Shown one piece after another: positions 1-16,534 of a stretch of DNA of 16,534 nucleotides. The notes under the pieces are model-generated. The model worked only from the letters and a program-made list of their open reading frames with translations, was not told the DNA's origin and did not search any database. The stretch is from Candidatus Heimdallarchaeota archaeon (lineage in GTDB: Archaea; Asgardarchaeota; Heimdallarchaeia; JABLTI01), in assembly GCA_030614005.1 (NCBI GenBank), contig JAUWKS010000069.1:1-16534 (forward strand), read 5' to 3'. Position 1 is the stretch's first letter; each line of letters begins with the position of its first letter. The position numbers were made by a program, and so were the translations under genes.

Positions 1-50
1 ATGAGTATTTTGTATGCTTTTCTTGTGAGGCGCTGTTCTTTTGAGAGCAT
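1..50 (-). CDS. Possible 5' end of a hypothetical protein running off the left edge (MLSKEQRLTRKAYKIL...)
   Basis: ATG at 50-48 on the minus strand, with an in-frame TAG four codons upstream; open to position 1. Only 16 codons are visible and it does not resemble the IorB N-terminus. Confidence 0.2.
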   Translation of the reverse strand, partial: MLSKEQRLTRKAYKIL

Positions 51-293
51 TTTTTCTTCATACTATTATTGTTTAGCTGAATATATTTCATTTAGCTAAA
101 GAGGTTACTGAAAGTATTATCCTTTATTTAAAAGAATAGTTGAACAATTAGCTATTCGTACAGCTTTTCAAGAGTTATTTAAAAAGAAGAAAGAGTATTG
201 AATTGTAGGAGAATCACTATGCAAAATTATTGGCATTTCTATGAAAAAAGATTCTTGCTTATTTTCTTTGACTGTGGAAATTTAAAATATTGG

Positions 294-1742: not shown

Positions 1743-1865
1743 TACATCAATTTCCTTTTGATTTTTGTTTCAAACAATTAAAGAAAGATAGTTCTCTAGT
1801 GAATAAAACGTAAAAATAGCTCTTAATCTTTTCTATTTACAAAGCAAGATGCTTGAAGAGTGTTT

Positions 1866-2957
1866 TCAGATATCAAAACACTCGAATAAACCGTTAGGAA
1901 GATCTGCCATTATTATTTCATCCCCATCTGAATGATCCTCAAAAATGAATTGACTATTAATATCAATTGTTTCAAATGAACCAGAATTCATAAGAGAAAC
2001 GTTGGGTGGTTGAAGTGCCATAATGATAAATTTTGGTAGATTTACTTTCTTCTTTATGATAATGAGATTATCAGGATGACTTTCTTTATGGGAAAGGGTT
2101 TTGTGGTCTCTTGTTTTTAGATTGAACAATTCTATTCTGCCAAAAACGAATCGTATTATTTGGTGTGATTCATGTTGATACTCTACAACATCACCAACTT
2201 CAAAATATGGCACTCGAATACAATAGGTTGAGAGGTAAACTGGTTTGCCATCCTTTACTGATTTTAATTTGGTACTATATTCAATAGATGCTGCAAGGTT
2301 CTCTGCAAGATAATGAGCAATGTTTTTAGCAAAGTTTTCACTCCCAATGTAAAGATCAATGCCACCCCTTGTTTGGTCCTCAAACTTGGCAATATATGCC
2401 ATTCGATTGCCACCAAAGTTCTCTTCCTTTTTAGTTTTAATAAGCTCGGAGATAAACCGCTGTTCATCTTCATTTATGTCTCTTTGATCACTACGCACTT
2501 GAACAATCGACTCAAAATAGCCTCGATTAAATTTCGCACAACGTTCGCAAACACCAATATTGATAATTAAATTAAGATCCATTTCCTGCTGATATGGAGG
2601 GACTTCAGCATTGGGACTTCCTTCAAAAATAATTTTAAGAAGGTGTTTTGAAGCAATATCAAATGGTGGATCACCAAAATCTGAAACAACCATTAATTTT
2701 GTTCCTTTAGCTTTTTTTGCTTTCTTTACAAATCCATCGAGAATTTCATGGATAATATCTGCTGGACTATCAATTACTTGTCTCCATTTACTATGATACA
2801 TTAAATCGCTGCAAACCTTACACGCAGTAATATTAAGCTGTTTTTCTGGGAAGGAGATGATCAAGGGAAATTCTAGAGCGTAACAGCTAAGACAAAAACC
2901 TTCTACTATTTTTTCTTCTGAATCAGTTTTTCCACATTTACAACAAATTTGTCCCAT
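1866..2957 (-). CDS. nmd3: NMD3-family ribosome biogenesis protein
   Basis: Four Cys pairs (CCKCG, CLSC, CKVC, CERC), followed by GYFESIVQVR and GGIDLYIGS; archaeal length with C-terminal OB/eIF5A-like regions. Confidence 0.92.
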   Translation of the reverse strand: MGQICCKCGKTDSEEKIVEGFCLSCYALEFPLIISFPEKQLNITACKVCSDLMYHSKWRQVIDSPADIIHEILDGFVKKAKKAKGTKLMVVSDFGDPPFDIASKHLLKIIFEGSPNAEVPPYQQEMDLNLIINIGVCERCAKFNRGYFESIVQVRSDQRDINEDEQRFISELIKTKKEENFGGNRMAYIAKFEDQTRGGIDLYIGSENFAKNIAHYLAENLAASIEYSTKLKSVKDGKPVYLSTYCIRVPYFEVGDVVEYQHESHQIIRFVFGRIELFNLKTRDHKTLSHKESHPDNLIIIKKKVNLPKFIIMALQPPNVSLMNSGSFETIDINSQFIFEDHSDGDEIIMADLPNGLFECFDI

Positions 2958-3009
2958 AGATGTTTCACCTTTACGAAATAAAGTTGGTATTGATATTAAT
3001 CACGCAGTT

Positions 3010-3333
3010 TTAGCGCAATAACATAACATGTCCTATGCGCCCATTTTTTTTGCACTCTAACCACATGACTGCCAGGTCGCTAACTATTCGATTTTCTACA
3101 GCAGCATTTACTATCTCGAAACCAATAAGATTACAACTTGTAGCTTTATTCATTTCCTCTAAGCATTGATCAATGGTGACTAAATCGCCTCCAAAGAAAC
3201 GTTCATTGACGTAGAGTTCAGTTTCACCATCAATTAGAGTTTCTCCTAGCAATTTCTCATCACATGCTGTGACTAGGTAATCTCTTTCGGTTTGTCGCAC
3301 TCGCAGATAGAACCGCTGTCCTTTCTTTTTCAT
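3010..3333 (-). CDS. DUF424 family protein
   Basis: Motifs LVTACDEKLLG, VNERFFGG and NLIG; lies between nmd3 and aIF-2beta. The ATG at 3333 has GAGTGA upstream and is preferred over the GTG at 3342. Confidence 0.85.
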   Translation of the reverse strand: MKKKGQRFYLRVRQTERDYLVTACDEKLLGETLIDGETELYVNERFFGGDLVTIDQCLEEMNKATSCNLIGFEIVNAAVENRIVSDLAVMWLECKKNGRIGHVMLLR

Positions 3334-3372
3334 TGGTATCACTCAAAGAAGTTGGTGATGTTTTTTCAACAT

Positions 3373-3786
3373 CTAAACTGATTTGACACTTGTTCGAGCA
3401 CCGCATGCTTCACAAACAAGAAAGTTTATTCGATCTTCTCTTATCAATACTGTATCTGGTTTTCCACATTCAGGACAGATAACATATTCTTTGATATAAC
3501 GATTGAAGAGGTCAATCATTGTTCCTCGAAAGTGCTTGCCTGAAAAGACTGCTCTTTGTCCTTCAATATTTGCTGAAGTAGCTAATTCTTTTGTAATGAA
3601 TTTTAATACATGGTTTTCATCACGTTGTAAAGCAGTAACTATTTGGTGCCAGTTTTTTACGAATGTGCGGTTGCCTTGAATATCTGCATCTGGTTTTGGG
3701 GGTTCAAAACGTGATTTTTCAAATATTTTTTCTGGGATTTGTTCACGAGCGCGTTTCAATAAATCCTTATAATTTTGATTTGACAT
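3373..3786 (-). CDS. eif2b: Translation initiation factor 2 beta subunit (aIF-2beta)
   Basis: RFEPP, GNRTF, KELAT, YIKEYVICPECGKPDT and C-terminal CEACGA zinc ribbon; 137 aa. Confidence 0.96.
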   Translation of the reverse strand: MSNQNYKDLLKRAREQIPEKIFEKSRFEPPKPDADIQGNRTFVKNWHQIVTALQRDENHVLKFITKELATSANIEGQRAVFSGKHFRGTMIDLFNRYIKEYVICPECGKPDTVLIREDRINFLVCEACGARTSVKSV

Positions 3787-3809
3787 AAAGCTACTTCTCT
3801 AACAAGTAA

Positions 3810-3824
3810 ATATTAAACTTTTTC
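3810..3824 (-). promoter_or_regulatory. Candidate archaeal BRE-TATA promoter of the aIF-2beta/DUF424/nmd3 unit
   Basis: Minus strand reads GAAAAAG-TTTAATAT; the TATA-like element lies 24-31 nt upstream of the ATG at 3786. Confidence 0.45.
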
Positions 3825-3913
3825 ACTTTTCCCTATTAAGGTTTACAGAAATACCTCACTCTATGCCGAAAAAACCAAAAAGGAACGTTCAAATATCAAT
3901 TCGTGTTTCGCTC

Positions 3914-4705
3914 ATGACTGTAGAATTTGGTATCATTGGTGGTTCTGGCTTTTACTCTATTTCTTCAAAAGGTGTTGAAGAGAATATTGAGACCCCGTTT
4001 GGAACTGTCGCAGTAAATATTTTCGATATAAATGATAGAAAAGTTGCTTTTATTACTCGACATGGATTAAAACACAGCATTCCTCCCCATTTAGTTAACT
4101 ATCGAGCAAATATATTCGCTTTGCATTCAATAGGTGTGAAACAAATAATTACCTCAAGTGCTGTTGGTTCTATGAAAGAGGAGATATTTCCTGGTAGCTT
4201 TGTTATACCCGATCAGTTCATAGATTTCACTATTGGGAGACCAAAAACATTCTTCGTAGATAATTTTGAAGTGAAATTGAACAATGGTTCAATACGAAAA
4301 GGTGTTGTTCACGTCGATTTAAGTGAACCCTACTGCCCTCATTTACGAGACGAATTGTTCATACAATCGAAAAAAATTGCTAAAAATGCTTTCAATAATG
4401 GTGTGTATGTTTGCACTGAAGGTCCAAGATTTGAAACCCCTGCTGAAATTAGTGCTTTCAAAATATTAGGGGGAACGTTAGTAGGGATGACTTCTGTTTC
4501 TGAATGTGTTCTTGCCCGAGAACTAGGTATTTGTTATTCTACTATTTGCTTGGTTACTAATTTTGCTGCAGGAATGCAAGAAAAGATTTCTACAGAAGAA
4601 GTATTCGCAGTATTCAAATCAAAAGTACTTGAACTCGAAGAAATAATTGTAAATACAATAGCTAATCTTGAAATTTCAGCTAAAAATTGTTCATGTGATA
4701 AGTAA
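3914..4705 (+). CDS. mtnP: MtnP/PNP2-family nucleoside phosphorylase, probably 6-oxopurine or methylthioinosine specific
   Basis: GIIGGSG, RHG, NYRANI, PDQFIDFT, EGPRFETPAE and VGMT. VTNFAAG has Asn where MTAP has VTDYD. The ATG at 3914 (MTVEFGIIGGSG) fits the family N-terminus better than 3863. Confidence 0.88.
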   Translation: MTVEFGIIGGSGFYSISSKGVEENIETPFGTVAVNIFDINDRKVAFITRHGLKHSIPPHLVNYRANIFALHSIGVKQIITSSAVGSMKEEIFPGSFVIPDQFIDFTIGRPKTFFVDNFEVKLNNGSIRKGVVHVDLSEPYCPHLRDELFIQSKKIAKNAFNNGVYVCTEGPRFETPAEISAFKILGGTLVGMTSVSECVLARELGICYSTICLVTNFAAGMQEKISTEEVFAVFKSKVLELEEIIVNTIANLEISAKNCSCDK

Positions 4706-4744
4706 AAAAATCACAACTCAAAATGAAAAAAAGAGACAATTTTG

Positions 4745-4765
4745 AGCATTTTTCTATGCTTTTTT
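4745..4765 (+). terminator. Possible terminator after the phosphorylase gene
   Basis: AGCAT-ttttct-ATGCT 5-bp stem running into a T-tract, 40 nt after the stop. Confidence 0.3.
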
Positions 4766-4799
4766 GATAGAAGTAATAATTATATACCATATTGCGAAT

Positions 4800-4818
4800 A
4801 ATAGTTGAATAAACTATT
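4800..4818. promoter_or_regulatory. Palindrome AATAGTT-N5-AACTATT, candidate transcription-factor site upstream of operon 1
   Basis: Perfect 7-bp inverted repeat about 45 nt upstream of the TATA-like box. The AT-rich context makes chance occurrence possible. Confidence 0.25.
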
Positions 4819-4864
4819 TTGTAAAAAATGGATAATTTACTCTTGTAAGTTAAACAAAATTTGG

Positions 4865-4874
4865 TATATATAAA
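4865..4874 (+). promoter_or_regulatory. TATA-box candidate for operon 1
   Basis: TATATATAAA 20-30 nt upstream of ATG 4895; GGGTGA SD-like sequence at 4883-4888. Confidence 0.4.
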
Positions 4875-4894
4875 ATGTCCAAGGGTGAACGGAG

Positions 4895-5743
4895 ATGTAC
4901 AGTTACGTATCACTAAAAGTTGATTGCCCTCTTTGCGGGAAATCTTTAATGGATTCTGAAGTGCATGTAGATGACATTCCGAGTATTAAATTAAATATAT
5001 CCGAGAATGGTGAACGAGGTACGATAAACTTAAGCTCGTTCTATGGGAGTTATAATTATGAATGTGATATTGACATTCATGATGAATTAATCTATCAATT
5101 CTATTGTCCACACTGTATTGAAAATCTTAATTCTGAAGAAGAAAACTGTGACGTATGTTCTTCACAAGCAGTTACTTTGAAAATTAGAGAAGGTGGAGAA
5201 GTAAGGTTTTGTCCAAGAGCAGGTTGTAAAAATCACAATGTGGAATTTGTTGATCTTTCAAATGTTCTAAATTACTTAAAACAGAATATTGAGAAACCAG
5301 AGATTATTGAAATAAATAGCGCCGAAGAAAAAGCTCTCCAAAAAGAGTTAATTAGAAGCGGCACTTTCTTACGAATATACTGCCCTCATTGTAAAAAGAG
5401 TTTAGTCGAGAAAAATTCAGTCATGTTCAAAATTGTAAACCAAAAAAATGAGAAAGGTTATTTGACATTGAGCCCCTATCTGAACGTTTTTGCAGAGAAA
5501 TCTACAATCTTCGTTCCAAATGGTGCTGTTGCAAGTGATATCCTGTGTCCATTCTGTGAAAAATCATTGGTAGATCCAGAAGATTTATGCCAAGAATGTA
5601 AATCACCTACAGTAAATGTCAATGTTGCTGCTGTAAGAAAAATGATTGATTTTCATTTCTGTTCAATGAAAGGCTGCCATTGGCATAGTCTTAGTCAAGA
5701 AGATTTGCATCACGTTTTGTTGGAAGATAGTCTCAGTTGGTAA
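4895..5743 (+). CDS. Cys-rich hypothetical protein A, tandem duplication of an 8-Cys/1-His metal-binding domain
   Basis: 282 aa with two repeats of CxxC-x~50-CxxC-x10-CxxC-x17/20-Cx4Cx2H (C11-H114 and C163-H264). SD present; colinear paralog at 12428-13288. Confidence 0.9.
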   Translation: MYSYVSLKVDCPLCGKSLMDSEVHVDDIPSIKLNISENGERGTINLSSFYGSYNYECDIDIHDELIYQFYCPHCIENLNSEEENCDVCSSQAVTLKIREGGEVRFCPRAGCKNHNVEFVDLSNVLNYLKQNIEKPEIIEINSAEEKALQKELIRSGTFLRIYCPHCKKSLVEKNSVMFKIVNQKNEKGYLTLSPYLNVFAEKSTIFVPNGAVASDILCPFCEKSLVDPEDLCQECKSPTVNVNVAAVRKMIDFHFCSMKGCHWHSLSQEDLHHVLLEDSLSW

Positions 5744-5825
5744 AAAGGAACCAAAAGATAAGATAAGTGTCTACTAACAACGATTGAATTTATAGAAAAA
5801 ACATTGTTAAAGAGGAATTTTAAAA

Positions 5826-6365
5826 ATGACTATTGAAAGTAATAAAATTTCCACTCAAAGTTTTAAGCTCACTAGCTCTGCAATAAAAAGTATCACTAAA
5901 ATATTAGAGCATAATGATCACGACCCAAGAAATCTAATACAAATTTTACAGGAACTACAAGACGAATTTCATTATCTACCAGAACCAATCATTTCCTATA
6001 TTGCAAAACAACTGAAAATTTCAGAACATCACATTTTTGGAGTGGCTACTTTTTATTCTCAGTTCAAATTTATTGAACCGGGTAAACATATAATACGGGT
6101 TTGTATGGGGACTGCATGTCATGTAATGGGTGCTCAATCTTTATTGGATAAATTATCTCGAGAGCTTAAGATTATCTCTGGGGAAACCACGAAAGATGGT
6201 TTATTCAGTTTAGAAAGTGTGTACTGCTTAGGATGTTGTGCTTTAGCCCCTGTAATGGTTATTGACGATGAAGTCTTTGGAAGTATGACTGCTGCTAAAG
6301 TAAATAGAACTCTGAGAAAATATCAGAAACAGAACTCTGGTAATAAAGGGAGGAATAAGAAGTGA
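5826..6365 (+). CDS. nuoE: NuoE/HydC-like [2Fe-2S] subunit
   Basis: LIQILQELQ...YLP, GVATFYSQF, CMGTACH...CLGCCALAP (Cx4C...Cx3C); GAGGA SD at 5812-5816. Confidence 0.93.
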   Translation: MTIESNKISTQSFKLTSSAIKSITKILEHNDHDPRNLIQILQELQDEFHYLPEPIISYIAKQLKISEHHIFGVATFYSQFKFIEPGKHIIRVCMGTACHVMGAQSLLDKLSRELKIISGETTKDGLFSLESVYCLGCCALAPVMVIDDEVFGSMTAAKVNRTLRKYQKQNSGNKGRNKK

Positions 6366-8239
6366 TAGATTTTGATACGATGGTAAAGAAGGCAAAAGCT
6401 TCTTGGAATTCATTACATGATCAAAAGAAACCTGTGATTTTTGCTGGTGCAGCTTCTTGCGGACGAGCAGCTGGCATTTTACCAGTTATAGAACAACTAA
6501 AGGAACTTTCCAAAAAAATCCCTCTTGATATTATTGAAGTTGGTTGTATTGGTCCTTGCTATTTAGAACCTATTATCGGCATTCAGATAAAAGGAGAACC
6601 AACAATTCTCTATGCAAATGTTCAACCGATTCAGGCACAAGAATTAGTTGAGAATTATCTCGTTAAGAACGATCCTCAACCAGATAAAGCAATTGGAACA
6701 ATTGGAGAAGGTAAAATAGAAGGCATTCAATCATTTTGGGAACATCCAATGATCAAGGATCAAGTACGTATCGTTTTGAAAAATTGCGGAATAATCGATC
6801 CTGCAAACATTAATCATTATTTGGCAATGGATGGTTATCAAGGCCTAAAGCAAGCATTAGCAATGAAACCTGAAGATGTCATTGAGAAAGTGCAAGAATC
6901 TGGCTTAAGAGGGCGAGGTGGTGCAGGATTCCCCACTGGTTTGAAATGGAAGTTCACACGTTCCGAAAAGGAACCTGAAAAATACATTATTTGCAATGCA
7001 GACGAAGGTGACCCTGGTGCATTTATGAATCGTTCCTTAATAGAAGGCGACCCACATGCAGTTCTAGAAGGTATGGTGATTGGCGCTTATGCAATAGGAG
7101 CAAGTACAGGTTATGTCTATTGTCGAGCAGAATATCCATTAGCTATTGATCGATTTGAGAAAGCTATTGCTGCTATGAAAAAACATGGTTTATTGGGTGA
7201 GAATATACTAAATAGTGGTTTTTCATTTGATATTCAAATAAAGAAAGGTGCGGGTGCGTTCGTTTGTGGAGAAGAAACAGCATTAATTGCTTCAATAGAA
7301 GGAGAAAGAGGTATGCCAAGACAAAAACCACCCTATCCATCACAGGAAGGTGTCTGGGGTAAACCAACTGTTATTAACAACGTGGAAACGCTGGGAACCG
7401 TACCGGTTATTTTACGTGAAAAATCATCTTGGTATACTAAATATGGAACTAAGCAATCAAAAGGGACGAAAACATTCTCATTAGTTGGTAAGGTGAAACG
7501 CACTGGATTAATTGAGGTTCCTCTTGGCACAACATTGCGCAAAGTAATTTTTGATATAGGTGGAGGCATCAAAGAAGATAAGGGTTTCAAAGCCATTCAA
7601 GTAGGTGGTCCCTCCGGAGGAACAATCCCGTCTGCGTTTATAGATGAAACACTTGATTATGAAGAATTGACAAAGCTAGGAGCAATTATGGGTTCAGGTG
7701 GGGTAGTCGTTATTGATGAGGACACTTGTGTTGTTGATTTAGCAAAATATTTCCTGCAATTCATTCAAGCAGAATCTTGTGGGAAATGCGTTCCATGTCG
7801 TGTTGGAAATAAACAATTGCTTGATTTATTAGTAAAAATATCAAAAGGATTAGGAAATATCGATGATTTTGAACTACTTGAAGAGCTAGCTTTTACCATT
7901 TCACAAGGATCATTATGTGGTTTGGGAAAAACAGCACCAAATCCTGTTATCACTACTTTAACTTATTTCAGAGACGAATACAAAGCACATGTAATAGATA
8001 AAATATGCCCAGCAAAAGTTTGCAAAGACCTATTTCTATACCAAGTGGATGCTGAAACTTGTATCGGTTGCGAAATCTGCAGGAAACGATGTCCTGTGGG
8101 AGCTATTACCGGGGAAAAGAAACAACCCCACGTAATAGATTTTGAAAAATGCATTAAATGTGATGTGTGTTCAACGAATTGTCCCGCAAAAGCAATTCGT
8201 AAAATAGACAAGGTGAGTGTTAAAATTGTTAGTAATTAA
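6362..8239 (+). CDS. nuoF: NuoF/HydB-like FMN/NADH-binding subunit of the electron-bifurcating (HydB) architecture
   Basis: N-terminal thioredoxin-like Fe-S domain (SCG...GCIGPC), GLRGRGGAGFPTGLKW, CNADEGDPGAFM, GAGAFVCGEET, ESCGKCVPCR...SLCG, HVIDKICPAKVC and a C-terminal 2x[4Fe-4S] domain (CIGCEICRKRCP, CIKCDVCSTNCP). GTG start overlaps the upstream TGA; GGGAGG SD. Confidence 0.93.
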   Translation: MIDFDTMVKKAKASWNSLHDQKKPVIFAGAASCGRAAGILPVIEQLKELSKKIPLDIIEVGCIGPCYLEPIIGIQIKGEPTILYANVQPIQAQELVENYLVKNDPQPDKAIGTIGEGKIEGIQSFWEHPMIKDQVRIVLKNCGIIDPANINHYLAMDGYQGLKQALAMKPEDVIEKVQESGLRGRGGAGFPTGLKWKFTRSEKEPEKYIICNADEGDPGAFMNRSLIEGDPHAVLEGMVIGAYAIGASTGYVYCRAEYPLAIDRFEKAIAAMKKHGLLGENILNSGFSFDIQIKKGAGAFVCGEETALIASIEGERGMPRQKPPYPSQEGVWGKPTVINNVETLGTVPVILREKSSWYTKYGTKQSKGTKTFSLVGKVKRTGLIEVPLGTTLRKVIFDIGGGIKEDKGFKAIQVGGPSGGTIPSAFIDETLDYEELTKLGAIMGSGGVVVIDEDTCVVDLAKYFLQFIQAESCGKCVPCRVGNKQLLDLLVKISKGLGNIDDFELLEELAFTISQGSLCGLGKTAPNPVITTLTYFRDEYKAHVIDKICPAKVCKDLFLYQVDAETCIGCEICRKRCPVGAITGEKKQPHVIDFEKCIKCDVCSTNCPAKAIRKIDKVSVKIVSN

Positions 8240-9794
8240 TGGTAACCAAGTTCCCTACGAAGAAGGTAAAACTATATTAGAAATCGCTCGAGAGAACGAT
8301 ATCTACATTCCAACACTTTGCGCTCATGAACGATTGCCTTCTTTTGGTGCATGTCGTATGTGTATGGTGAAAGTGCATGGTAATAAAGGGTTCATGAATG
8401 CTTGCACAACCAAAGTAAAAGATGGAATGGTAGTCACAACAGAAAGCCTCGAGATTAAGAGATTACGACGTTCAATATTTGAGCTTATACTATCCGAGCA
8501 TCCGAGTAGCTGTATGATGTGCGCGCAAGCAGAACATTGTGATAAATTCAATTCGGGTATTATGAAAGCTGGAGTAATAACGGGTTGCAATACGTGCCCA
8601 AATAAAGAGACGTGTGAACTACGAAAAATTAGTGATGCATTGAACTTTAAAACAATAAGGTTCCCAATGTTTTACAAGCATCTACCAATAGAACGAAATG
8701 ACCCATTTTTTGATCGCGATTATAATCTATGTATCCATTGTGGGCGCTGTGTAAGAGTTTGCCAAGATGTAGAAGGTGCATCAATATTGGTGTTTACTCA
8801 CAGAGGACATGATACAAAGGTTGGTACTTCTTTTGAAAAACCACACATAGAAACTGATTGCAAGTTTTGCGGGCAATGTGTTGATGTATGCCCTACTGGA
8901 GCATTATCGGCCAGAAATCAGAAGTGGTATGAGACCCCCGACGAACAAGTGAGTACAACCTGTCTGTTGTGTGATAAAGGGTGTAGGTTCCAGATTGACG
9001 TTAAATGGGGAAGAATGGTTGGGATGAGACCTGATCCGGAATACAAAACTCTTGAGACGGGAATATGTGTCAAAGGAAGATTTTGTCTGCCAGTTTTACT
9101 AAACAATATGGATCGTTTAAGGTTCCCAAGAATTCGACGGAATTTCAAACTATATCCAACAAATTGGGATGAAGCTGCTGCAAAGGTGGCGGAGATATTT
9201 GAAAATTATCCACCAAGCAAAATAGCATTATATATATCTCCATTTCTCATTGATGAAGCAGATTATCTATTTACGAAAATTGCATCGGATTTGGAAATAA
9301 CAAATATCTTTCGAAGTAAAGAGGATTTAACTAATATAAACAAAAAAGGAATAAAAGTGCTCTATACAACAGAAGGACTGCCAAATCTTGACAAGTATAA
9401 GTCATTAGAGAAAATTATCCTACAAGAAGTATTTTCTGCAGATGGACATGATTTTGCTGACGTAATTTTACCTGCAGCAGCATTCACTGAAGAAACGGGA
9501 ACAATAACCACTAATCATGGAATAATGACTGTCGAAAAAGTTGTGAAAGCACCAGACCTAGCTCTAGAAGATTGGAAGATTGTAGCAAAAATAGCTCAAG
9601 AATTGGATCTTTCAGGTTTCAAATTTATAGAAACAAGTGAAATTCAAGGTGAAATGAAACGCCTCGGAATTAAAGGAAAAACTCGGGGCGTCGAAGAACA
9701 TTATTTGAAATACCGAGGAACAGCAATTGCCGACAAAGTACCGGATTTCAAAATTTTGATCGAAGCTCGAAAAGAACGAGACAAGCTGTGGTGA
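8217..9794 (+). CDS. NuoG/HydA/FdhA-like multi-Fe-S subunit with a collapsed molybdopterin-type domain and no H-cluster (non-catalytic)
   Basis: [2Fe-2S] (IPTLC...GACRMC...NAC), His-ligated cluster HPSSCMMC, 2x[4Fe-4S] (CIHCGRCVRVC, CKFCGQCVDVCP), FS0-type CLLCDKGC...CVKG and ADVILPAAAFTEETGT. Only 525 aa. The start may be the TTG at 8226, given AAGGTGA at 8210-8216. Confidence 0.85.
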   Translation: MLKLLVINGNQVPYEEGKTILEIARENDIYIPTLCAHERLPSFGACRMCMVKVHGNKGFMNACTTKVKDGMVVTTESLEIKRLRRSIFELILSEHPSSCMMCAQAEHCDKFNSGIMKAGVITGCNTCPNKETCELRKISDALNFKTIRFPMFYKHLPIERNDPFFDRDYNLCIHCGRCVRVCQDVEGASILVFTHRGHDTKVGTSFEKPHIETDCKFCGQCVDVCPTGALSARNQKWYETPDEQVSTTCLLCDKGCRFQIDVKWGRMVGMRPDPEYKTLETGICVKGRFCLPVLLNNMDRLRFPRIRRNFKLYPTNWDEAAAKVAEIFENYPPSKIALYISPFLIDEADYLFTKIASDLEITNIFRSKEDLTNINKKGIKVLYTTEGLPNLDKYKSLEKIILQEVFSADGHDFADVILPAAAFTEETGTITTNHGIMTVEKVVKAPDLALEDWKIVAKIAQELDLSGFKFIETSEIQGEMKRLGIKGKTRGVEEHYLKYRGTAIADKVPDFKILIEARKERDKLW

Positions 9795-9799
9795 TGTAA

Positions 9800-10657
9800 A
9801 TGTATGAAATTGTAGAAAAATATGAAGAAGTTCCAAATGTTCATCGTTTAGTTGTAAGAGAACCAAATATAGCCGCAAAAGCTCAACCAGGACAATTTGC
9901 AATTTTAATGGCGGACGAACAAAGTGAACGTGTGCCTATTTCAATAGTTGACACCAAAGATGATACATTTACAATGTTTATACTTGAACTAGGGATATCC
10001 TCTGCAAAAATCGTAAATATGAAAGAAGGAGATACGCTAGAAGCTGTTACTGGACCTCTTGGTATGCCTGCAGATTTAGGTAAATACGGTAGGGTTGTTC
10101 TTGGTGGAGGATGCTATGGCATTGGTGCTATCTATCCACTTGCGAGAGCTTTGAAAGAGCTTGGAAATGAAGTAGTAACGATAATAGAAGCACGAAGTGA
10201 TTATCTACTATATTTCCAAGAAGAATTGAAAGCAGTTTCGGATGAGTTTTTTGTTGCAACTTCTGATGGCACAGAAGGAACAAATGGACATGTACAAGAT
10301 GTTTTAGTAAAATTGATCCGAGATGGAGAAAGATTTGATCATGCAAAATTCATCGGATGTACGTATATGATGATGAATTGTTCGCATATTACATCACCAT
10401 ATAGGATCCCAACAAAAGTAGCATTGAACACAATAATGTTAGATGGTACAGGCATGTGCGGTTGTTGTCGAGTTTCTGTTGAAGGTGAAACAAAATTCGC
10501 TTGCGTTGATGGCCCAGAATTTGATGGGCATCATGTTGATTGGGATGAATTAATGAAACGAAAATCCTCCTACCTAATGGAGGAAATGCTTGCTTATCAA
10601 ACAGCACCCCATACATGCAAAGCATTAGAAAAAGCTTATTCTGGTGATTCAAAATGA
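9800..10657 (+). CDS. nfnA: NfnA (NfnS/SudB/PyrK-like) small FAD/[2Fe-2S] subunit, divergent copy 1
   Basis: PGQF, ERVPISIVD, GPLG and DGTGMCGCCRV...FACVDGPEFDG; GGTGA SD overlaps the upstream stop. Confidence 0.9.
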   Translation: MYEIVEKYEEVPNVHRLVVREPNIAAKAQPGQFAILMADEQSERVPISIVDTKDDTFTMFILELGISSAKIVNMKEGDTLEAVTGPLGMPADLGKYGRVVLGGGCYGIGAIYPLARALKELGNEVVTIIEARSDYLLYFQEELKAVSDEFFVATSDGTEGTNGHVQDVLVKLIRDGERFDHAKFIGCTYMMMNCSHITSPYRIPTKVALNTIMLDGTGMCGCCRVSVEGETKFACVDGPEFDGHHVDWDELMKRKSSYLMEEMLAYQTAPHTCKALEKAYSGDSK

Positions 10658-12147
10658 GCAAAAAGAAATCCCCCGCCCCTAAAAAAGAAAATGCAAAGCA
10701 ATCACCAAAAGATAAACCTGCTGAAAAACCTAAACGACCTCCAAGACCACCTCGCACAAAAATGCCAGAGCAACCCCCTGATATTCGAATAAAAAATTTT
10801 GTTGAGGTTCCATATGGTCTAACCCCTGAAGAAGCACAACTTGAAGCTGCTAGATGTATACAATGCAAACGACCGAAATGCGTAGAGGGTTGTCCTGTAA
10901 GTGTCCAAATACCTGAATTCATAGCTCTCATAAAAGACGGGCATTTTGCAGAAGCAGCTAGTAAGATAAAAGAAACAAATGTTTTACCTGCTGTTTGTGG
11001 TCGAGTTTGTCCGCAAGAAACACAATGTGAAGAAACCTGTATTTTAGGTCGTCGTGGTGAACCCGTGGCAATCGGTTATTTGGAAAGATTTTGCGCAGAT
11101 TATGAAAGGTTGGGTGGACATATTAAACTCCCAAAGAAGAAGAGACCCAATGATAAGAAAGTAGCAATTGTCGGCTCAGGACCCGCAGGTTTGACTGTAG
11201 CTGGTGATCTCTCATTGCTCGGTTACAAATTAACAATTTTTGAAGCATTTCACAAAGGTGGTGGAGTACTCGTTTATGGTATACCCGAGTTTAGATTGCC
11301 TAAGGAAATTGTTGAAACCGAAATAAACTATTTGGAACGTCTTGGTGTTGAGATTAAATACAATCACGTTATTGGTATGTGTAAATCTATAAACGAACTT
11401 CTGACAAAAGATGGTTTTGACGCCGTATTTATTGGTGTTGGTGCAGGACTACCGAGATTTTTGAACATTCCAGGGGAGAATCTAAATGGAGTATATTCAG
11501 CAAATGAATACCTTACTCGTTCGAATTTGATGAAAGCTTATCTTTATCCTACGTACAATACACCTATTATGAAAGGAAGAAAAGTAACTGTTGTAGGTGG
11601 AGGAAATGTGGCTATGGATTGTGCTCGAACCGCACTGAGACTCGGTTCAGATAAGGTAATGTTGGTCTATCGTAGAGCGAGAGAGCAAATGCCTGCAAGA
11701 GCTGAGGAAGTACATCATGCTGCTGAGGAGGGCATTGATTTTAGATTGCTTTCAAATCCCGTTGAAATTATTGGTGATGACACCGGAGTAGTGAAGCGAA
11801 TCAAATGCCAAAAATATCAGTTAGGAGAACCAGATGATTCTGGTAGAAGAAGACCTTTACCTATTGAAGGAGAATATTTTGAATTAGAAACTGATTTGGT
11901 GATCATTGCAATAGGGAATAATGCAAACCCCCTCATAAAAGCTACAACTCCCGATATTGAAACGAATAAATGGGGTAATATTATCGTAGATGAATTTGGT
12001 CGTACAAATAAAAATTTCGTCTATGCCGCGGGAGATATTGTCACAGGTGGAGCAACAGTTATCTCAGCAATGGGCGGTGGGAGAAAAGCTGCAACAGGTA
12101 TTCATAGAGATCTAATGGGAATAAAGGATGAAGATGTCCAAGATTAA
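10654..12147 (+). CDS. nfnB: NfnB (NfnL/SudA/GltD-like) large subunit, copy 1, with Lys/Pro-rich N-terminal extension
   Basis: RCIQCKRPKCVEGCP, CGRVCPQETQCEETC, GSGPAG, YGIPEFRLPK, GGGNVAMD, VYRR (NADP-type) and GDIVTGGATVISAM. ATGA overlap with nfnA. Confidence 0.93.
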   Translation: MSKKKSPAPKKENAKQSPKDKPAEKPKRPPRPPRTKMPEQPPDIRIKNFVEVPYGLTPEEAQLEAARCIQCKRPKCVEGCPVSVQIPEFIALIKDGHFAEAASKIKETNVLPAVCGRVCPQETQCEETCILGRRGEPVAIGYLERFCADYERLGGHIKLPKKKRPNDKKVAIVGSGPAGLTVAGDLSLLGYKLTIFEAFHKGGGVLVYGIPEFRLPKEIVETEINYLERLGVEIKYNHVIGMCKSINELLTKDGFDAVFIGVGAGLPRFLNIPGENLNGVYSANEYLTRSNLMKAYLYPTYNTPIMKGRKVTVVGGGNVAMDCARTALRLGSDKVMLVYRRAREQMPARAEEVHHAAEEGIDFRLLSNPVEIIGDDTGVVKRIKCQKYQLGEPDDSGRRRPLPIEGEYFELETDLVIIAIGNNANPLIKATTPDIETNKWGNIIVDEFGRTNKNFVYAAGDIVTGGATVISAMGGGRKAATGIHRDLMGIKDEDVQD

Positions 12148-12150
12148 ATG

Positions 12151-12189
12151 ATTGTAGATGCAAAAAGTTTCTACAATTGTTATTTTTTT
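12151..12189 (+). terminator. Hairpin plus T-tract ending operon 1
   Basis: ATTGTAGA (12151-12158) pairs with TCTACAAT (12170-12177) around an 11-nt loop, followed by T7 at 12183-12189, just after the nfnB stop. Confidence 0.6.
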
Positions 12190-12427
12190 ATCACTTTTAG
12201 CTTATCCATTATTGAGTAGCTAATAATCTGAGATTAAATTAAAATGTTTTTAATATTAACTTGTCATTGGATACTTAAACCAATTAAATTACTATTTATT
12301 TAGACACATACATATTATTTTTATAGTATAACCGTGAAGATAATTTGAATTGATAATCTCAACATCTCTCTCAAAAAAGAGGTCCAATCTAAATGCTCGT
12401 TTTAATAAAAATTAAAGGAGATTGAAA

Positions 12428-13288
12428 ATGCACGACTTTATAGCACTAAAACTAAATTGTCCGCTCTGTGAAAAATCACTAATGGACACTCAAACATTAA
12501 TCGATAATCTACCCGGAGTAAAATTAAATATATCCTTTGATGATCAACAAGGAGTGATTCATCTGAGCGCTATTTATGGTAGCTATAATTATACTACCAA
12601 CATCAAAATTCCTTTAGGTAAAGAAGCTACTTTCTCTTGTCCCCATTGCAAAGAACCAATTGTTTCTGAAATAAAATGCGAGGTATGTTCTGCTCATTCT
12701 GTTCCATTGAAAATCGAAGATAATGGAATTGTTAGAATATGTTCTCGTGCCGGTTGTAAAAACCATTATGTGGAATTTGAAGATTTGTCCCATGCTCTAG
12801 AACACTTCTATGTGTATTTTGATTATGGTGATGCAAGCAGAGTAAAGAAACCATTAACAGAATCCAATGCGACACCAGATGCTGATAAAGAAATAGTGAA
12901 ATCAGGTACATTCCTTAGAACATATTGCCCTCATTGCGAAGACAGCCTCTATAAAAATAGAGCAATTGAATTTAAGATAACTGGCAAAGATGGAGAAGAA
13001 GGTATATTACAATTAAGTCCCTTTCTCAATGTGTTTACAAACGAATCAACTTTTTACATTCCCGAGGGAGAACCTGTAAAGAATGTTAGATGTCCTCATT
13101 GCGATGAAAGTCTTTTGCGTAAAGGTGAGGATTGTCCAGAATGTGGAGAAGCAATTGTAAGTGTATCTGTTGCTGCCCTATCAAAAATAATTGATTTCTA
13201 TTTTTGTTCAAAGAAAGGGTGTCATTGGCATGGAATGAGTCAAGAAGATATAGATGATATAATCATTGAGGATAGCAGTGAGTGGTAA
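12428..13288 (+). CDS. Cys-rich hypothetical protein B, paralog of protein A (two 8-Cys/1-His domains)
   Basis: Same ligand pattern twice and colinear with 4895-5743. AAAGGAG at 12414-12420 favours the ATG at 12428 over the TTG at 12422. Confidence 0.9.
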   Translation: MHDFIALKLNCPLCEKSLMDTQTLIDNLPGVKLNISFDDQQGVIHLSAIYGSYNYTTNIKIPLGKEATFSCPHCKEPIVSEIKCEVCSAHSVPLKIEDNGIVRICSRAGCKNHYVEFEDLSHALEHFYVYFDYGDASRVKKPLTESNATPDADKEIVKSGTFLRTYCPHCEDSLYKNRAIEFKITGKDGEEGILQLSPFLNVFTNESTFYIPEGEPVKNVRCPHCDESLLRKGEDCPECGEAIVSVSVAALSKIIDFYFCSKKGCHWHGMSQEDIDDIIIEDSSEW

Positions 13289-13291
13289 TAA

Positions 13292-14119
13292 ATGCATCAA
13301 ATAATTCGTAAACAAGAAATGGCAAAAGGTACAATTGTACGATTTGATGTTCGTGCTCCAGAAATAGCAAAAAAAGCAAAACCTGGACAATTTGTGATTG
13401 TAAGACTTACGGAAACTGGTGAAAGAATACCACTAACAATTGCAGATAAGGACAGCTTTGAAGGGTATATAACACTCATTTTTCAGGTAGTTGGAAAAAC
13501 AACTGCAATAATGAGAACGTTAAATGAAGGTGACGCAATAAAGGACCTTGTTGGGCCACTAGGAAAACCAGCAGATATACAAAAAGTTGGCACAGTAATA
13601 ATGGTCGGTGGTGGAACTGGTGTCGCAATATTACATCACATTGCGAAAGCATTCAAAGAAGCAGGTAATACTGTGATTAGCATTATCGGTGCACGCGAAA
13701 AAGACTTGTTAATCCTTGAAAACGAAATGAGAATAATTTCCGATGAACTGGTTATAACTACTGATGATGGAAGCTATGGACAACTTGGTTTTGTTACAGA
13801 GCCCTTACAAAGATATCTAGATGAACGTTATGACATTAAGGAAGTATATGCTATTGGTCCAATTCCAATGATGAAATTCGTTTGCCGATTGACAAAGAAA
13901 TATAATGTACCAACAATGGTCAGCCTTAATCCAATAATGATTGATGGCACCGGCATGTGCGGTGGTTGTCGTGTGACTGTTGGAAACGAAACAAAGTTCT
14001 GCTGTGTTGATGGTCCTGACTTCAATGGGCATGAAGTAGACTTTGATGAACTAACAAAACGAAATTCTATGTATCTTAAGGAAGAAAAAGATGCACTATT
14101 ATTTTCAATAAGAGGTTAA
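13292..14119 (+). CDS. nfnA: NfnA small subunit, canonical copy 2
   Basis: PGQFVIVR, ERIPLTIAD, GPLG, VGGGTG, IIGAR, TTDDG, IGPIPMM and SLNPIMIDGTGMCGGCRV...CVDGPDF. Confidence 0.94.
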   Translation: MHQIIRKQEMAKGTIVRFDVRAPEIAKKAKPGQFVIVRLTETGERIPLTIADKDSFEGYITLIFQVVGKTTAIMRTLNEGDAIKDLVGPLGKPADIQKVGTVIMVGGGTGVAILHHIAKAFKEAGNTVISIIGAREKDLLILENEMRIISDELVITTDDGSYGQLGFVTEPLQRYLDERYDIKEVYAIGPIPMMKFVCRLTKKYNVPTMVSLNPIMIDGTGMCGGCRVTVGNETKFCCVDGPDFNGHEVDFDELTKRNSMYLKEEKDALLFSIRG

Positions 14120-14123
14120 ACCA

Positions 14124-16007
14124 ATGGTAGATTATGATGTAAAATATCTAAAATTTAAAACCTACCTGAACACCTATTGTCCGCACTGCAGAAATAGCTT
14201 TAACAGAAAAGAAAAAGAAATGGACAAACTCAAGTTCATAGGTGTCTATAAAGGTGAAGATTTTGAATTAACAATAAGCGCTTATCTAGACGTTTTTGAG
14301 GCTCAAGCTTCAATACCTTTGAAAGAAGGAATGATTCTTGAAGATTGCAAATGCCCTCATTGCAAACAAAGTCTTGTGACCTCTGAAAAGAAATGTGGAG
14401 AATGCGGCTCTGCTGTAGGTGAAGTAATTATCAGTGCCTTTTCAAAACTAATTCCTTTCTTCACTTGTTTGAAATATGGTTGTGAATGGCATGGCTTAAC
14501 TAAAGCGGATGAACGAAGAATCAAACTAAAAATTCCTAGACAAGAAATGCCCGAACAAGATCAAGTACTAAGAATTCATAATTTCAATGAGGTACCCTAT
14601 GGACTAACCACTGAATTAGCTTTATTAGAAGCTGGTAGATGCTTACAATGCAAGCAACCAAAATGTGTTGAAGGTTGTCCAGTAAATATTGATATCCCTG
14701 AATTTATTCGATTAATCGCTGAAGAGAAAATTGAAGATGCAGTAATGAAAGTAAAAGAAACAAACCTTTTTCCAGCAATTTGTGGTCGAGTCTGTCCACA
14801 AGAGAATCAGTGTGAAGAACTTTGTATTTTAGGAAAGCGAGATTATCCCGTTGCTATTGGTCATCTTGAGAGATTTATTGCTGATTATGAACGTCGTATG
14901 GATTTCAGGAAATTACCCAGAATTGAAGCGAAAAACAATAAACGAATAGCTGTTGTCGGGTCTGGACCTGCTGGTTTAACCGTTGCAGCTGATTTAATTC
15001 AATTGGGTTACAGCATAACAATTTATGAGGCACTTCACGAACCTGGTGGGGTACTCGTTTACGGCATCCCTGAATTTCGATTGCCAAAATCAATTGTTCA
15101 TTATGAAATTGAGTTCTTAAAGAGTCTTGGATGTCGAATTGAAACAAATCATGTGATTGGTTATATCTATAGCATTGCTGAATTGCTTGAAAATTACGAT
15201 GCAGTATTTTTAGGTGTCGGTGCAGGTTTACCACGATTTATGAATATTACAGGTGAAAATCTGTGCAATGTGTTTTCTGCTAATGAATATCTAACCCGAA
15301 TGAATCTCATGAAAGCGTACAAATTTCCCGAATATGACACTCCAATGCCCGAAGGTAATGATATTGTTGTGATTGGTGGTGGAAACGTAGCAATGGATTG
15401 TGCTAGAAATGCAAAACGAACCGGAGCAATAAATGTTACCGTTGTCTATCGTCGATCGAGAAAGGAATTACCTGCAAGAAATGAAGAAATTCGTCATGCA
15501 GAAGAAGAAGGCATTCATTTCAAGTTGCTAACGAATCCAGTTAGATTTGTAGGTGATGATCGAAATTGGTTGAAAGGAATAGAATGTGTTCTGATGGAAC
15601 TTGGTGAACCTGATGATTCCGGGAGAAGAAGACCTATCCCAATTGAGAATTCAAACATAACTATACCCTGTGATATAGCAATTGTTGCTATTGGTAATAG
15701 ACCAAATCCTATTCTCTTCAATACGACACCCAATTTACAAGGCAATAAATGGGGTTGTATAGAAGTTAATCAAGAAACAATGGAAACATCGATAGAGTAT
15801 GTTTATGCTGGAGGAGATATTGTTACTGGAGCAGCAACAGTAATCTCTGCTATGGGTCAAGGACGTATCGCAGCAAATGCAATGCATAAAAAATTGTCTA
15901 GACCTGCGAGTAAAACAAAACCCAAGCAAAAACCTGAAAAAGCTGTAGCGACTACTCCAAAACCCAAACCAAAAGCTAAATCTACATCTACCCGAAAGAA
16001 AATTTAG
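14124..16007 (+). CDS. nfnB: NfnB large subunit, copy 2, fused to an N-terminal 8-Cys/1-His domain and carrying a Lys/Pro-rich C-terminal tail
   Basis: Residues 19-123 repeat the Cys-rich domain. From about residue 138 it has all NfnB motifs (RCLQCKQPKCVEGCP, CGRVCPQENQCEELC, GSGPAG, GIPEFRLPK, GGGNVAMD, VYRRS, GDIVTGAATV). Confidence 0.93.
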   Translation: MVDYDVKYLKFKTYLNTYCPHCRNSFNRKEKEMDKLKFIGVYKGEDFELTISAYLDVFEAQASIPLKEGMILEDCKCPHCKQSLVTSEKKCGECGSAVGEVIISAFSKLIPFFTCLKYGCEWHGLTKADERRIKLKIPRQEMPEQDQVLRIHNFNEVPYGLTTELALLEAGRCLQCKQPKCVEGCPVNIDIPEFIRLIAEEKIEDAVMKVKETNLFPAICGRVCPQENQCEELCILGKRDYPVAIGHLERFIADYERRMDFRKLPRIEAKNNKRIAVVGSGPAGLTVAADLIQLGYSITIYEALHEPGGVLVYGIPEFRLPKSIVHYEIEFLKSLGCRIETNHVIGYIYSIAELLENYDAVFLGVGAGLPRFMNITGENLCNVFSANEYLTRMNLMKAYKFPEYDTPMPEGNDIVVIGGGNVAMDCARNAKRTGAINVTVVYRRSRKELPARNEEIRHAEEEGIHFKLLTNPVRFVGDDRNWLKGIECVLMELGEPDDSGRRRPIPIENSNITIPCDIAIVAIGNRPNPILFNTTPNLQGNKWGCIEVNQETMETSIEYVYAGGDIVTGAATVISAMGQGRIAANAMHKKLSRPASKTKPKQKPEKAVATTPKPKPKAKSTSTRKKI

Positions 16008-16013
16008 CTTTAA

Positions 16014-16088
16014 AATTCACTGCTTTATATTACAAAAGTGAATTGTTGGTGATCGACAGAAAATCCATCACCAGAATTTTTTTCTTTT
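16014..16088 (+). terminator. Two tandem hairpins plus T-tract ending operon 2
   Basis: AATTCACT/AGTGAATT (16014-16021 with 16037-16044), then TGGTGAT/ATCACCA (16047-16053 with 16067-16073), followed by T7-C-T4 at 16077-16088. Confidence 0.6.
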
Positions 16089-16234
16089 CGCTAAATTTAT
16101 TGACAGTGATTTTTGCAGAACTATTACTTGAAAATCAAAAAGTTAATTAAAGTAGATTACTTCTTAATGAGATAATAATTCCTAGTTACAATCTTTTAGG
16201 AGTAAATTATGACCCTAATGTTGGCAGTGAAGTT

Positions 16235-16534
16235 ATGACAAAACTATACTTTTTCTATTGTCAAGAATGCGATAAATTGACACCCATTTTTGAGGCTCAA
16301 ATGAGTTGGATAGATCAAACAGGTAAGGTAGGATTACGGCTAACATTTGAGGGAGAACCTGATGGTGAATATACCGGTGAATGGGAAACAGTCATCATCC
16401 ATGATGCAATGTGTATAAAATGCAATTTAGTATATCAAATTATTATAGGAGATTTCTCCTACAAACTAAAAGAACAAGTAATAGATGATCAGAGTACAAG
16501 TTTATTTGTAAGAATGAAAGATTTTGAGTACGAA
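16235..16534 (+). CDS. Hypothetical protein with two CxxC pairs (zinc-ribbon-like), partial at the right edge; not in the supplied ORF track
   Basis: My translation is MTKLYFFYCQECDKLTPIFEAQMSWIDQTGKVGLRLTFEGEPDGEYTGEWETVIIHDAMCIKCNLVYQIIIGDFSYKLKEQVIDDQSTSLFVRMKDFEYE: 100 codons with no stop in AT-rich DNA. Confidence 0.65.
   Translation, partial: MTKLYFFYCQECDKLTPIFEAQMSWIDQTGKVGLRLTFEGEPDGEYTGEWETVIIHDAMCIKCNLVYQIIIGDFSYKLKEQVIDDQSTSLFVRMKDFEYE

Follow-up and report, generated by a model that had tools for sequence, protein, structure and literature searches.

A paired-cysteine subtype of the NfnA small subunit, always encoded after or fused to BfuA, plausibly marks a predicted Bfu-NfnSL hybrid enzyme

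The NfnAB (NfnSL) enzymes bifurcate electrons at the flavin adenine dinucleotide (FAD) of NfnB, and the high-potential electron passes through the [2Fe-2S] cluster of NfnA to the NfnA FAD, where nicotinamide adenine dinucleotide (NAD+) binds (PMC6405883, PMC8097209). The small subunit of Pyrococcus furiosus NfnII (NfnII-S) has no NAD-dependent activity, its site being obstructed and its binding residues changed (PMC6405883, PMC8097209). The Nfn-Bfu enzymes (Stn, NfnABC) have no NfnS and carry an NfnL-like domain inside BfuA, the FAD of which is a simple entry point, bifurcation taking place at the BfuBC flavobicluster (PMC12018979, PMC11829005, PMC9304861). In NfnABC of Thermococcus sibiricus, Zn sites are found in place of clusters (PMC12018979). 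Here, we have analysed a stretch of 16,534 nucleotides from Candidatus Heimdallarchaeota archaeon (assembly GCA_030614005.1, contig JAUWKS010000069.1, positions 1 to 16,534; hereafter the window), which carries two nfnA-nfnB pairs, focusing on the first nfnA gene (nfnA1) and its product, NfnA1. We have found that NfnA1 is a member of an NfnA/NfnS clade, here called Cys-Cys, which is old, widespread and not previously described and which exists only in bfuC(nuoE)-bfuB(nuoF)-bfuA(nuoG/fdh-like)-nfnA-nfnB operons or as a C-terminal fusion to BfuA.

The best solved relatives of NfnA1 were 4ylf_A (1.4e-69) and then 5jca_S, which is NfnI-S (1.9e-68). Its AlphaFold2 model (mean predicted local distance difference test score, pLDDT, of 82.8, with most of residues 1-210 above 85) had NfnI-S (5jca_S, template modelling score, TM, of 0.86), Thermotoga maritima NfnA and Xfn-S as Foldseek neighbours. 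Compared with NfnAB/NfnSL of T. maritima (4YLF/4YRY) and P. furiosus NfnI (5JCA), to which it is related at TM 0.83-0.86 and about 41-42% identity, NfnA1 shares the FAD strand ERxPx[TS] and the Asp/Cys3 [2Fe-2S] motif, and its gene is likewise translationally coupled to that of a canonical NfnB. In contrast to these enzymes, G105, G130, D155 and P187 are replaced by Cys, Glu, a non-acidic residue and Cys, respectively, and a NuoG/Fdh-like BfuA always precedes Cys-Cys NfnA, from a separate gene or within one polypeptide. PyrK of dihydroorotate dehydrogenase B (1EP1/5KSW) has the same FNR-like FAD domain and C-terminal [2Fe-2S] domain (PF10418), but is only 22-23% identical, reduces NAD+ and pairs with PyrD rather than with NfnB/BfuA.

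The small subunit of P. furiosus NfnII/Xfn (5VJ7_B) offers a partial parallel, having Ala-Tyr at positions 105-106, that is, a non-Gly residue followed by Tyr as in NfnA1. Unlike the Cys-Cys clade, NfnII-S keeps Pro187, lacks Glu130 and Cys105/187, has insertions in its NAD domain and, as far as described, is not linked to NuoEFG-like genes. Kinship of NfnA1 with NfnII-S was rejected, the match to 5vj7_B (1.3e-49) being weaker than those to 4ylf_A and NfnI-S; several gaps of this alignment fell in the 5vj7_B NAD domain. With the Nfn-Bfu enzymes of Sporomusa ovata (8OH5), Caldicellulosiruptor saccharolyticus (9BOV) and T. sibiricus (9N5U), the locus shares the NuoE/NuoF-like core, the NuoG/Fdh-like BfuA and an NfnL-type FAD/NADPH module, as well as, at the domain level only, a BfuB with an extra C-terminal 2x[4Fe-4S] domain and a NuoE-like [2Fe-2S] BfuC. 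It differs from these three-subunit, Type 1 Bfu enzymes in that BfuA of the window has no Pyr_redox domain and is followed by separate genes for a canonical NfnB and a specialised NfnS. A five-subunit enzyme made of Bfu and NfnSL was not found in the literature searched. The features of NfnA1 on which the comparison turns, and the second copy used as reference, are as follows.

9800..10657, + strand: nfnA1, Cys-Cys-type NfnA/NfnS (PyrK-like), 285 amino acids, PF10418 at 1.7e-12
9929..9943, + strand: FAD-binding strand R44-V-P46-I-S48 (ERxPx[TS]), retained; E43, R44 and P46 invariant in the clade, residue 48 Thr or Ser
10103..10129, + strand: beta1-alphaA loop GGGCYGIGA, with Cys105 (10112-10114) for an invariant Gly and Tyr106 for Val/Leu/Ile
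10187..10189, + strand: Glu130 at the beta2 end (IIEAR; canonical [IL]GAR)
10262..10264, + strand: Ser155 after beta3 (TSDG; canonical TDDG), the first Asp being lost
10358..10360, + strand: Cys187 after beta4 (IGCTYMM; canonical xGPxxMM)
10442..10504, + strand: Asp/Cys3 [2Fe-2S] motif D215, C220, C223, C235, retained; Cys222 is a variable position
10610..10621, + strand: C-terminal HTCK, residues 271-274, in a tail modelled at pLDDT below 50
13292..14119, + strand: nfnA2, canonical Gly-Pro-type NfnA, 275 amino acids, comparison copy (5jca_S, 2e-94)

NfnA1 and NfnA2 are 44% identical. The initial annotation of the window had reported six motif differences between the two copies, and all six are in the sequence, inside 10100-10470: GGGCYGIGA (residues 102-110) in NfnA1 for GGGTGVA in NfnA2, IIEAR (128-132) for IIGAR, ATSDG (153-157) for TTDDG, IGCTYMM (185-191) for IGPIPMM, LNTIM (209-213) for LNPIM and MCGCC (219-223) for MCGGC. 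The HTCK tail that it ascribed to copy 1 is present as well, outside this interval and still within the gene, and its statement that the FAD-binding region and the Asp/Cys3 [2Fe-2S] motif are retained agreed with our reading, ERVPIS and D215/C220/C223/C235 being intact. The strand E43-R44-V-P46-I-S48 fits the ERxPxT motif of NfnS as given in PMC6405883, with Ser replacing Thr, and NfnA1 matches the cluster motif DGTGMCGxCRx10-11CV with its Asp ligand. The canonical loops of the NAD(H) domain (xGGGxGxA, [IL]GAR, TDDG and xGPxxMM) are not matched by NfnA1, and Pfam NAD_binding_1 recognized NfnA2 (27.5 bits) and not NfnA1.

Proteins of the FNR/PyrK fold hold NAD(P)H at the C-terminal edge of a parallel sheet with the strand order 3-2-1-4-5, which makes beta1 and beta4 adjacent. 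In the NfnA1 model, the strands comprise residues 98-103 (beta1), 124-131 (beta2), 149-154 (beta3), 181-186 (beta4) and 205-209 (beta5). C105 and Y106 belong to the loop between beta1 and alphaA, and E130 to the last residues of beta2; S155 comes right after beta3, C187 is the first residue past beta4 and T211 follows beta5. The changed segments are thus placed at the C-terminal ends of beta1-beta5, at the pyridine-nucleotide site of the fold as had been proposed, with the residue-level NAD contacts assigned from reviews and from the fold.

We have then scored 150 representatives of 50%-identity clusters, drawn from 1.8 billion proteins. Cys was found at both 105 and 187 in 24-29 of them and Gly105/Pro187 in about 95, the remainder having other states. 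The best 120 homologues of NfnA1 (55-96% identity) all carry GGGC[YF]G, an [IL]EAR-like segment, T[SA]DG and GC[TS]xxM. By record name, they come from Heimdall-, Thor- and other Asgard archaea, Thermoplasmatota, Undinarchaeota, Deltaproteobacteria and Desulfobacterales; a 96%-identical relative is found in a Heimdallarchaeota metagenome-assembled genome, and genome loci extend the clade to Chloroflexota. The positions that discriminate the Cys-Cys from the canonical proteins are R37M/I, G105C, V/L/I106Y/F, G130E, I/F138Y and P187C. Cys105 was present in 24/24 clade representatives and 48/48 clade loci, against Gly in 96/96 and 100/100 of the canonical ones. Residue 130 was Glu in 24/24 and 45/48 (the other three having Asp), against Gly in 83/96 and 87/100, and residue 155 was never Asp in the clade (K/S/A/R/G/T), against Asp in 81/96 and 95/100. 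At residue 187, Cys is invariant in the clade and Pro in canonical NfnA. The core substitutions are fixed, or nearly so, across phyla and down to about 43% identity.

Other differences between the two copies do not follow the clade. T211 (LNTIM) and C222 (MCGCC) vary freely in both the Cys-Cys and the canonical group, and the C-terminal HxC was found in 78/135 clade members (58%), with any Cys in the tail in 119/135 (88%). Hence, from the list of features initially assigned to copy 1, C105, Y/F106, E130, non-Asp155 and C187 stand as clade characters, whereas LNTIM, MCGCC and HTCK do not. R132 also varies within the clade (R/S/K/P/C), and G104, G107, D156 and G157 are kept. A new Rossmann motif GxGxxG (G102-x-G104-x-x-G107) was considered and rejected because G102 and G103 vary across the clade. 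The column entropy of the clade NAD domain was no higher than in canonical NfnA, and A115, K119, N123 and D148 are invariant in the clade only. With G105C, V106Y/F, G130E, D155X, P187C, R37M and I138Y, the pyridine-nucleotide domain appears, from its sequence, to be re-specialised and not degraded.

In the maximum-likelihood tree, the Cys-Cys core (23 rows) formed a starred clade with a Shimodaira-Hasegawa-like approximate likelihood ratio test (SH-aLRT) value of 97, and one branch set apart the full 29 Cys-Cys rows together with three derived rows whose residues at 105/187 differ. When the trait columns were masked, the core was still starred (95) and the larger group was recovered with weak support (28). 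According to this topology, the Cys-Cys state arose once, or very few times, so that the concordant loci represent retention and not independent gains. A local remodelling of copy 1, as originally envisaged, was not borne out, since both the signature in the homologues and the tree place NfnA1 within an old clade.

In a small sub-lineage nested in or beside the Cys-Cys clade (L083, L109 and P0144), the two sites have changed once more, to Thr/Ser105 and Arg187, and Glu130 is kept (VMEAK); the nfnAB pair of L109 precedes an NfnB-NuoG-like hybrid open reading frame (ORF) of 565 amino acids. Many canonical NfnA of the Asgard family f11 (L046-L057) carry GGGCG[ST]A, in which the residue that follows the invariant Gly105 is Cys. 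This Cys is in a different register from that of the Cys-Cys clade, with a risk of confusion in motif searches.

The genes that surround nfnA1 in the window, with the second pair downstream, are listed below.

4895-5743, + strand: Zn-ribbon protein, the first of two in the window
5826..6365, + strand: NuoE/HydC/BfuC-like subunit (PF01257, 6.8e-50)
6362..8239, + strand: NuoF/HydB/BfuB-like subunit (PF01512, PF10589) with a C-terminal 2x[4Fe-4S] domain (Fer4 at 560-612)
8217..9794, + strand: NuoG/Fdh-like BfuA, 525 amino acids, without H-cluster and with a truncated molybdopterin domain, its stop 5 nucleotides before nfnA1
8538..8615, + strand: extra Cys of BfuA, C108, C124 and C127 (second CxxCx5C triad); C133 also occurs outside the clade
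10654..12147, + strand: nfnB1, canonical NfnB/NfnL (2x[4Fe-4S], FAD, NADPH site), overlapping nfnA1 by 4 nucleotides
14124-16007, + strand: nfnB2, after nfnA2

The second Zn-ribbon gene, also on the + strand, precedes nfnA2 and is separated from nfnB1 by a gap. The regions examined for gene neighbourhood were 60 from Asgard genomes, 80 metagenome loci, whose search patterns also retrieved canonical NfnA, and 4 from Chloroflexota. NfnA-like ORFs were classed by alignment, their flanks were searched for relatives of the other proteins of the window, and a locus was taken to have room when it had at least 2.5 kb upstream or was fused. For 37/37 Cys-Cys NfnA with room, the upstream flank held a NuoG-like gene of the same orientation, E-F-G-A-B being the gene order. 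Four Cys-Cys NfnA had no NuoG match: three (L015, L016 and L068) were cut by a contig end, and in the fourth (L073) the sequence directly upstream encodes the molybdopterin part of a long BfuA. In Chloroflexota, four of 301 genomes had a match below 1e-78, and 4/4 were Cys-Cys proteins in E-F-G-A-B operons. Among the canonical Gly-Pro NfnA with room (n=67), 57 had no nuoE/F/G-like neighbour and 10 had one. Nine of these 10 follow a Cys-Cys operon as second nfnA copies, an arrangement also seen in the window; the tenth (L139), which is near E-F-G, has a genuine [FeFe] HydA 4.5 kb away.

The same partition was seen in the fusions. Of the 29 Cys-Cys representatives in the set of 150, 12 are one-chain fusions of 550-1080 residues in which the NfnA part follows a NuoG/Fdh-like part, and none was fused to NfnB. 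The approximately 95 Gly-Pro representatives comprised about 20 fusions to NfnB and 0 to NuoG. Pfam confirmed the NuoG-like/NfnA fusion for P0128 and P0134, and eight Asgard loci (L037-L044) encode a BfuA-NfnA fusion. The expectation that the GGCYG/GCT variant would track with hydABC-like neighbours was therefore borne out by the 37/37 loci, the 4/4 Chloroflexota operons and the fusions. No stand-alone Cys-Cys nfnAB locus, let alone a widespread occurrence of such loci, was found in the Asgard, metagenome and Chloroflexota regions where the flank was long enough.

One metagenome contig (L066:1-5295), from the bacterial IIEARY/GCTQML subgroup, has the gene order G-A-B-F. Its NuoF-like gene, in which a NuoE-like [2Fe-2S] part forms the N-terminus, follows nfnB and does not precede nuoG.

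We have next compared the partner subunits. NfnB1 matched T. maritima NfnB (4ylf_B) at 1.7e-159 and has RCxQC...CPV and GRVCPQExQCE, the two [4Fe-4S] motifs, together with EFRLP, the arginine of which contacts the flavin N5 (PMC6405883). NfnB encoded beside Cys-Cys NfnA and NfnB encoded beside Gly-Pro NfnA were separated by 1/464 positions (Q345/E), whereas, with equal thresholds and in the same loci, NfnA had 6/265 clade-specific positions; two of these six define the groups, so that four are independent. This comparison suggests that the adaptation to the Bfu context resides in the small subunit, and there in the NAD domain, NfnB being canonical.

BfuA had 9bov_A as its best match (1.1e-58), and its residues 7-101 and 127-364 align to chain residues 8-102 and 568-807 of 9bov_A/8oh5_C. 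A 25-residue Cys-rich insert of BfuA (within residues 95-133, window 8499-8615) coincides with the insertion point of the ~460-residue NfnL-like domain in 9bov_A and 8oh5_C, which lies between the counterparts of BfuA residues ~101 and ~127. The extra Cys triad was found in 37/37 BfuA partners of Cys-Cys NfnA and in all 8 full-length BfuA-NfnA fusions examined, and the segment is specific to these partners, being a gap in the two further NuoG-like proteins compared. The insert site may be a common docking or insertion hot-spot beside the His-ligated cluster.

In many lineages (L012-L036, L145-L148 and L073), the BfuA that precedes Cys-Cys NfnA is 740-950 amino acids long and has a full-length molybdopterin domain. 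Pfam recognized Molybdopterin and Molydop_binding in the BfuA of L073; that of the window is truncated, with 525 amino acids. Some of the long-BfuA complexes might still be formate dehydrogenases.

The reading that we favour, with moderate confidence, is that the NfnA1 small subunit would no longer use free NAD(H) and would instead dock its former NAD cleft on BfuA and exchange electrons with it. The NfnA FAD and the Asp/Cys3 [2Fe-2S] cluster are kept, and the cleft would face the iron-sulfur subunit BfuA. Electrons would leave the bifurcating FAD of NfnB, pass through the [2Fe-2S] cluster to the NfnA FAD and from there to the BfuA wire, and reach NAD+ at the flavin mononucleotide (FMN) of BfuB, where NAD(H) would be handled. 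The loss of NAD(H) binding, the direct NfnA-BfuA transfer and the direction of flow are the three steps that we infer. The initial annotation had suggested that copy 1 lost or changed its NAD(H) use and passes electrons to the HydABC-like wire, which is in essence the same idea and seems plausible. Cys-Cys NfnA would then probably plug the Nfn enzyme into a second electron-bifurcating machine. Thermodynamic reasoning makes two successive bifurcations starting from NADPH difficult to accept and favours a plainly outsourced NAD+ site or a branched layout.

Several points weigh against this docking of NfnA on BfuA. Given the single origin of the clade, its many concordant loci are not independent events, and a fusion through a linker of ~20 residues is no proof of a direct electron-transfer contact. 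The solved Nfn-Bfu enzymes wire an NfnL-like domain, not NfnS, into BfuA, and they do so at the site of the extra Cys triad; by analogy, NfnB could be the plugged-in subunit and NfnA the terminal site. The high conservation of the clade NAD domain would suit a new partner, and a nucleotide site that persists as well. Furthermore, D156-G157 and G104/G107 are still present, and Glu130 lies at the end of beta2, where classically an acidic residue holds the adenosine ribose of NAD.

The main alternative, which we consider possible but doubtful, is that the FAD of Cys-Cys NfnA would still serve as a pyridine-nucleotide site, with a re-registered binding mode or a changed specificity, Glu130 replacing Asp155 as the ribose-binding acid. 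The five-subunit enzyme would on this view bind nucleotides at three places, the BfuB FMN, the NfnA FAD and the NfnB FAD, and the [4Fe-4S] arm of NfnB would provide the link to BfuA, as in Stn/NfnABC. The position of Glu130 in the model and its near invariance in the clade, the four retained Gly/Asp residues in a strongly constrained domain and the insertion of the NfnL-like domain of 9bov_A/8oh5_C where BfuA has its triad are all compatible with it. However, G105 and P187, which are invariant in the two canonical loops that flank the dinucleotide, are replaced by the bulkier Cys, residue 106 is aromatic as in the NAD-inactive NfnII-S, and R132 is variable. A link through NfnB also agrees poorly with the 1/464 positions, since NfnB shows no adaptation to a new partner, and with fusions that all join BfuA to NfnA and never to NfnB.

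It seems improbable, though compatible with docking of NfnA on BfuA, that in place of NAD(H) the NfnA FAD has as its partner a new redox or metal centre made by Cys105 and Cys187, which lie on neighbouring loops close to the flavin. Such a centre would be a dithiol/disulfide, or the two Cys would be Fe-S or Zn ligands, possibly shared with BfuA Cys108/124/127 or with HxC. C105 and C187 are invariant, always occur together and in the model follow the adjacent strands beta1 and beta4, but two Cys alone are too few for a cluster and the change could be a simple steric filling of the pocket. The three surplus Cys of BfuA in 37/37 partners, and in the fusions, could supply further ligands, yet they may bind a cluster of their own with a fourth ligand from BfuA; likewise, a tail Cys occurs in 88% of the members but is missing in 12%. 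The Zn sites that replace clusters in T. sibiricus NfnABC provide a precedent (PMC12018979). We give similarly little credence to the fuller version, in which the NfnA Cys pair and the BfuA triad would together build an inter-subunit redox centre that hard-wires NfnSL to BfuBC in place of NAD(H); if true, one enzyme would hold two bifurcation sites, in series or in parallel. Ordinary paralogue divergence by neutral drift is very improbable, for although the two copies are only 44% identical and T211, C222 and HTCK are indeed variable, it is already contradicted by core substitutions that are invariant across phyla and strictly co-occur with the gene context and the fusions.

NfnSL and Bfu have been treated as two separate electron-bifurcating families, and an NfnS lineage that is always found with BfuA joins both repeatedly and stably, in Asgard archaea as well as in several bacterial and archaeal phyla. 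It is plausible, from the sequence evidence, that this conserved and diagnostic NfnS subtype marks an undescribed Bfu-NfnSL hybrid enzyme. The coupling would have evolved at the former NAD(H) cleft of the small subunit, which would set Cys-Cys NfnA beside P. furiosus NfnII as its natural counterpart. In genome annotation, the five-residue signature separates the Cys-Cys proteins, which are now all named "sulfide/dihydroorotate dehydrogenase-like" or "ferredoxin-NADP+ reductase", from ordinary Nfn; an ESM Atlas look-up returned generic family names only. When the metabolism of Asgard archaea is reconstructed, the two "Nfn" copies should accordingly not both be counted as plain NADH-dependent transhydrogenases.

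Two minor features concern the other Nfn genes of these loci. In the Asgard family f4 (L011, L026, L029, L030 and L032-L035), the canonical second NfnA lies within an ORF of 585-653 amino acids downstream of the Cys-Cys operon, with an N-terminal extension that carries a GGGPAGLS-type dinucleotide motif, and is thus another form of NfnA fusion. Finally, residues 1-42 of NfnB1 (window 10654-10780) form a Lys/Pro-rich, probably disordered tail of ~40 residues, which NfnB of T. maritima and P. furiosus lacks.

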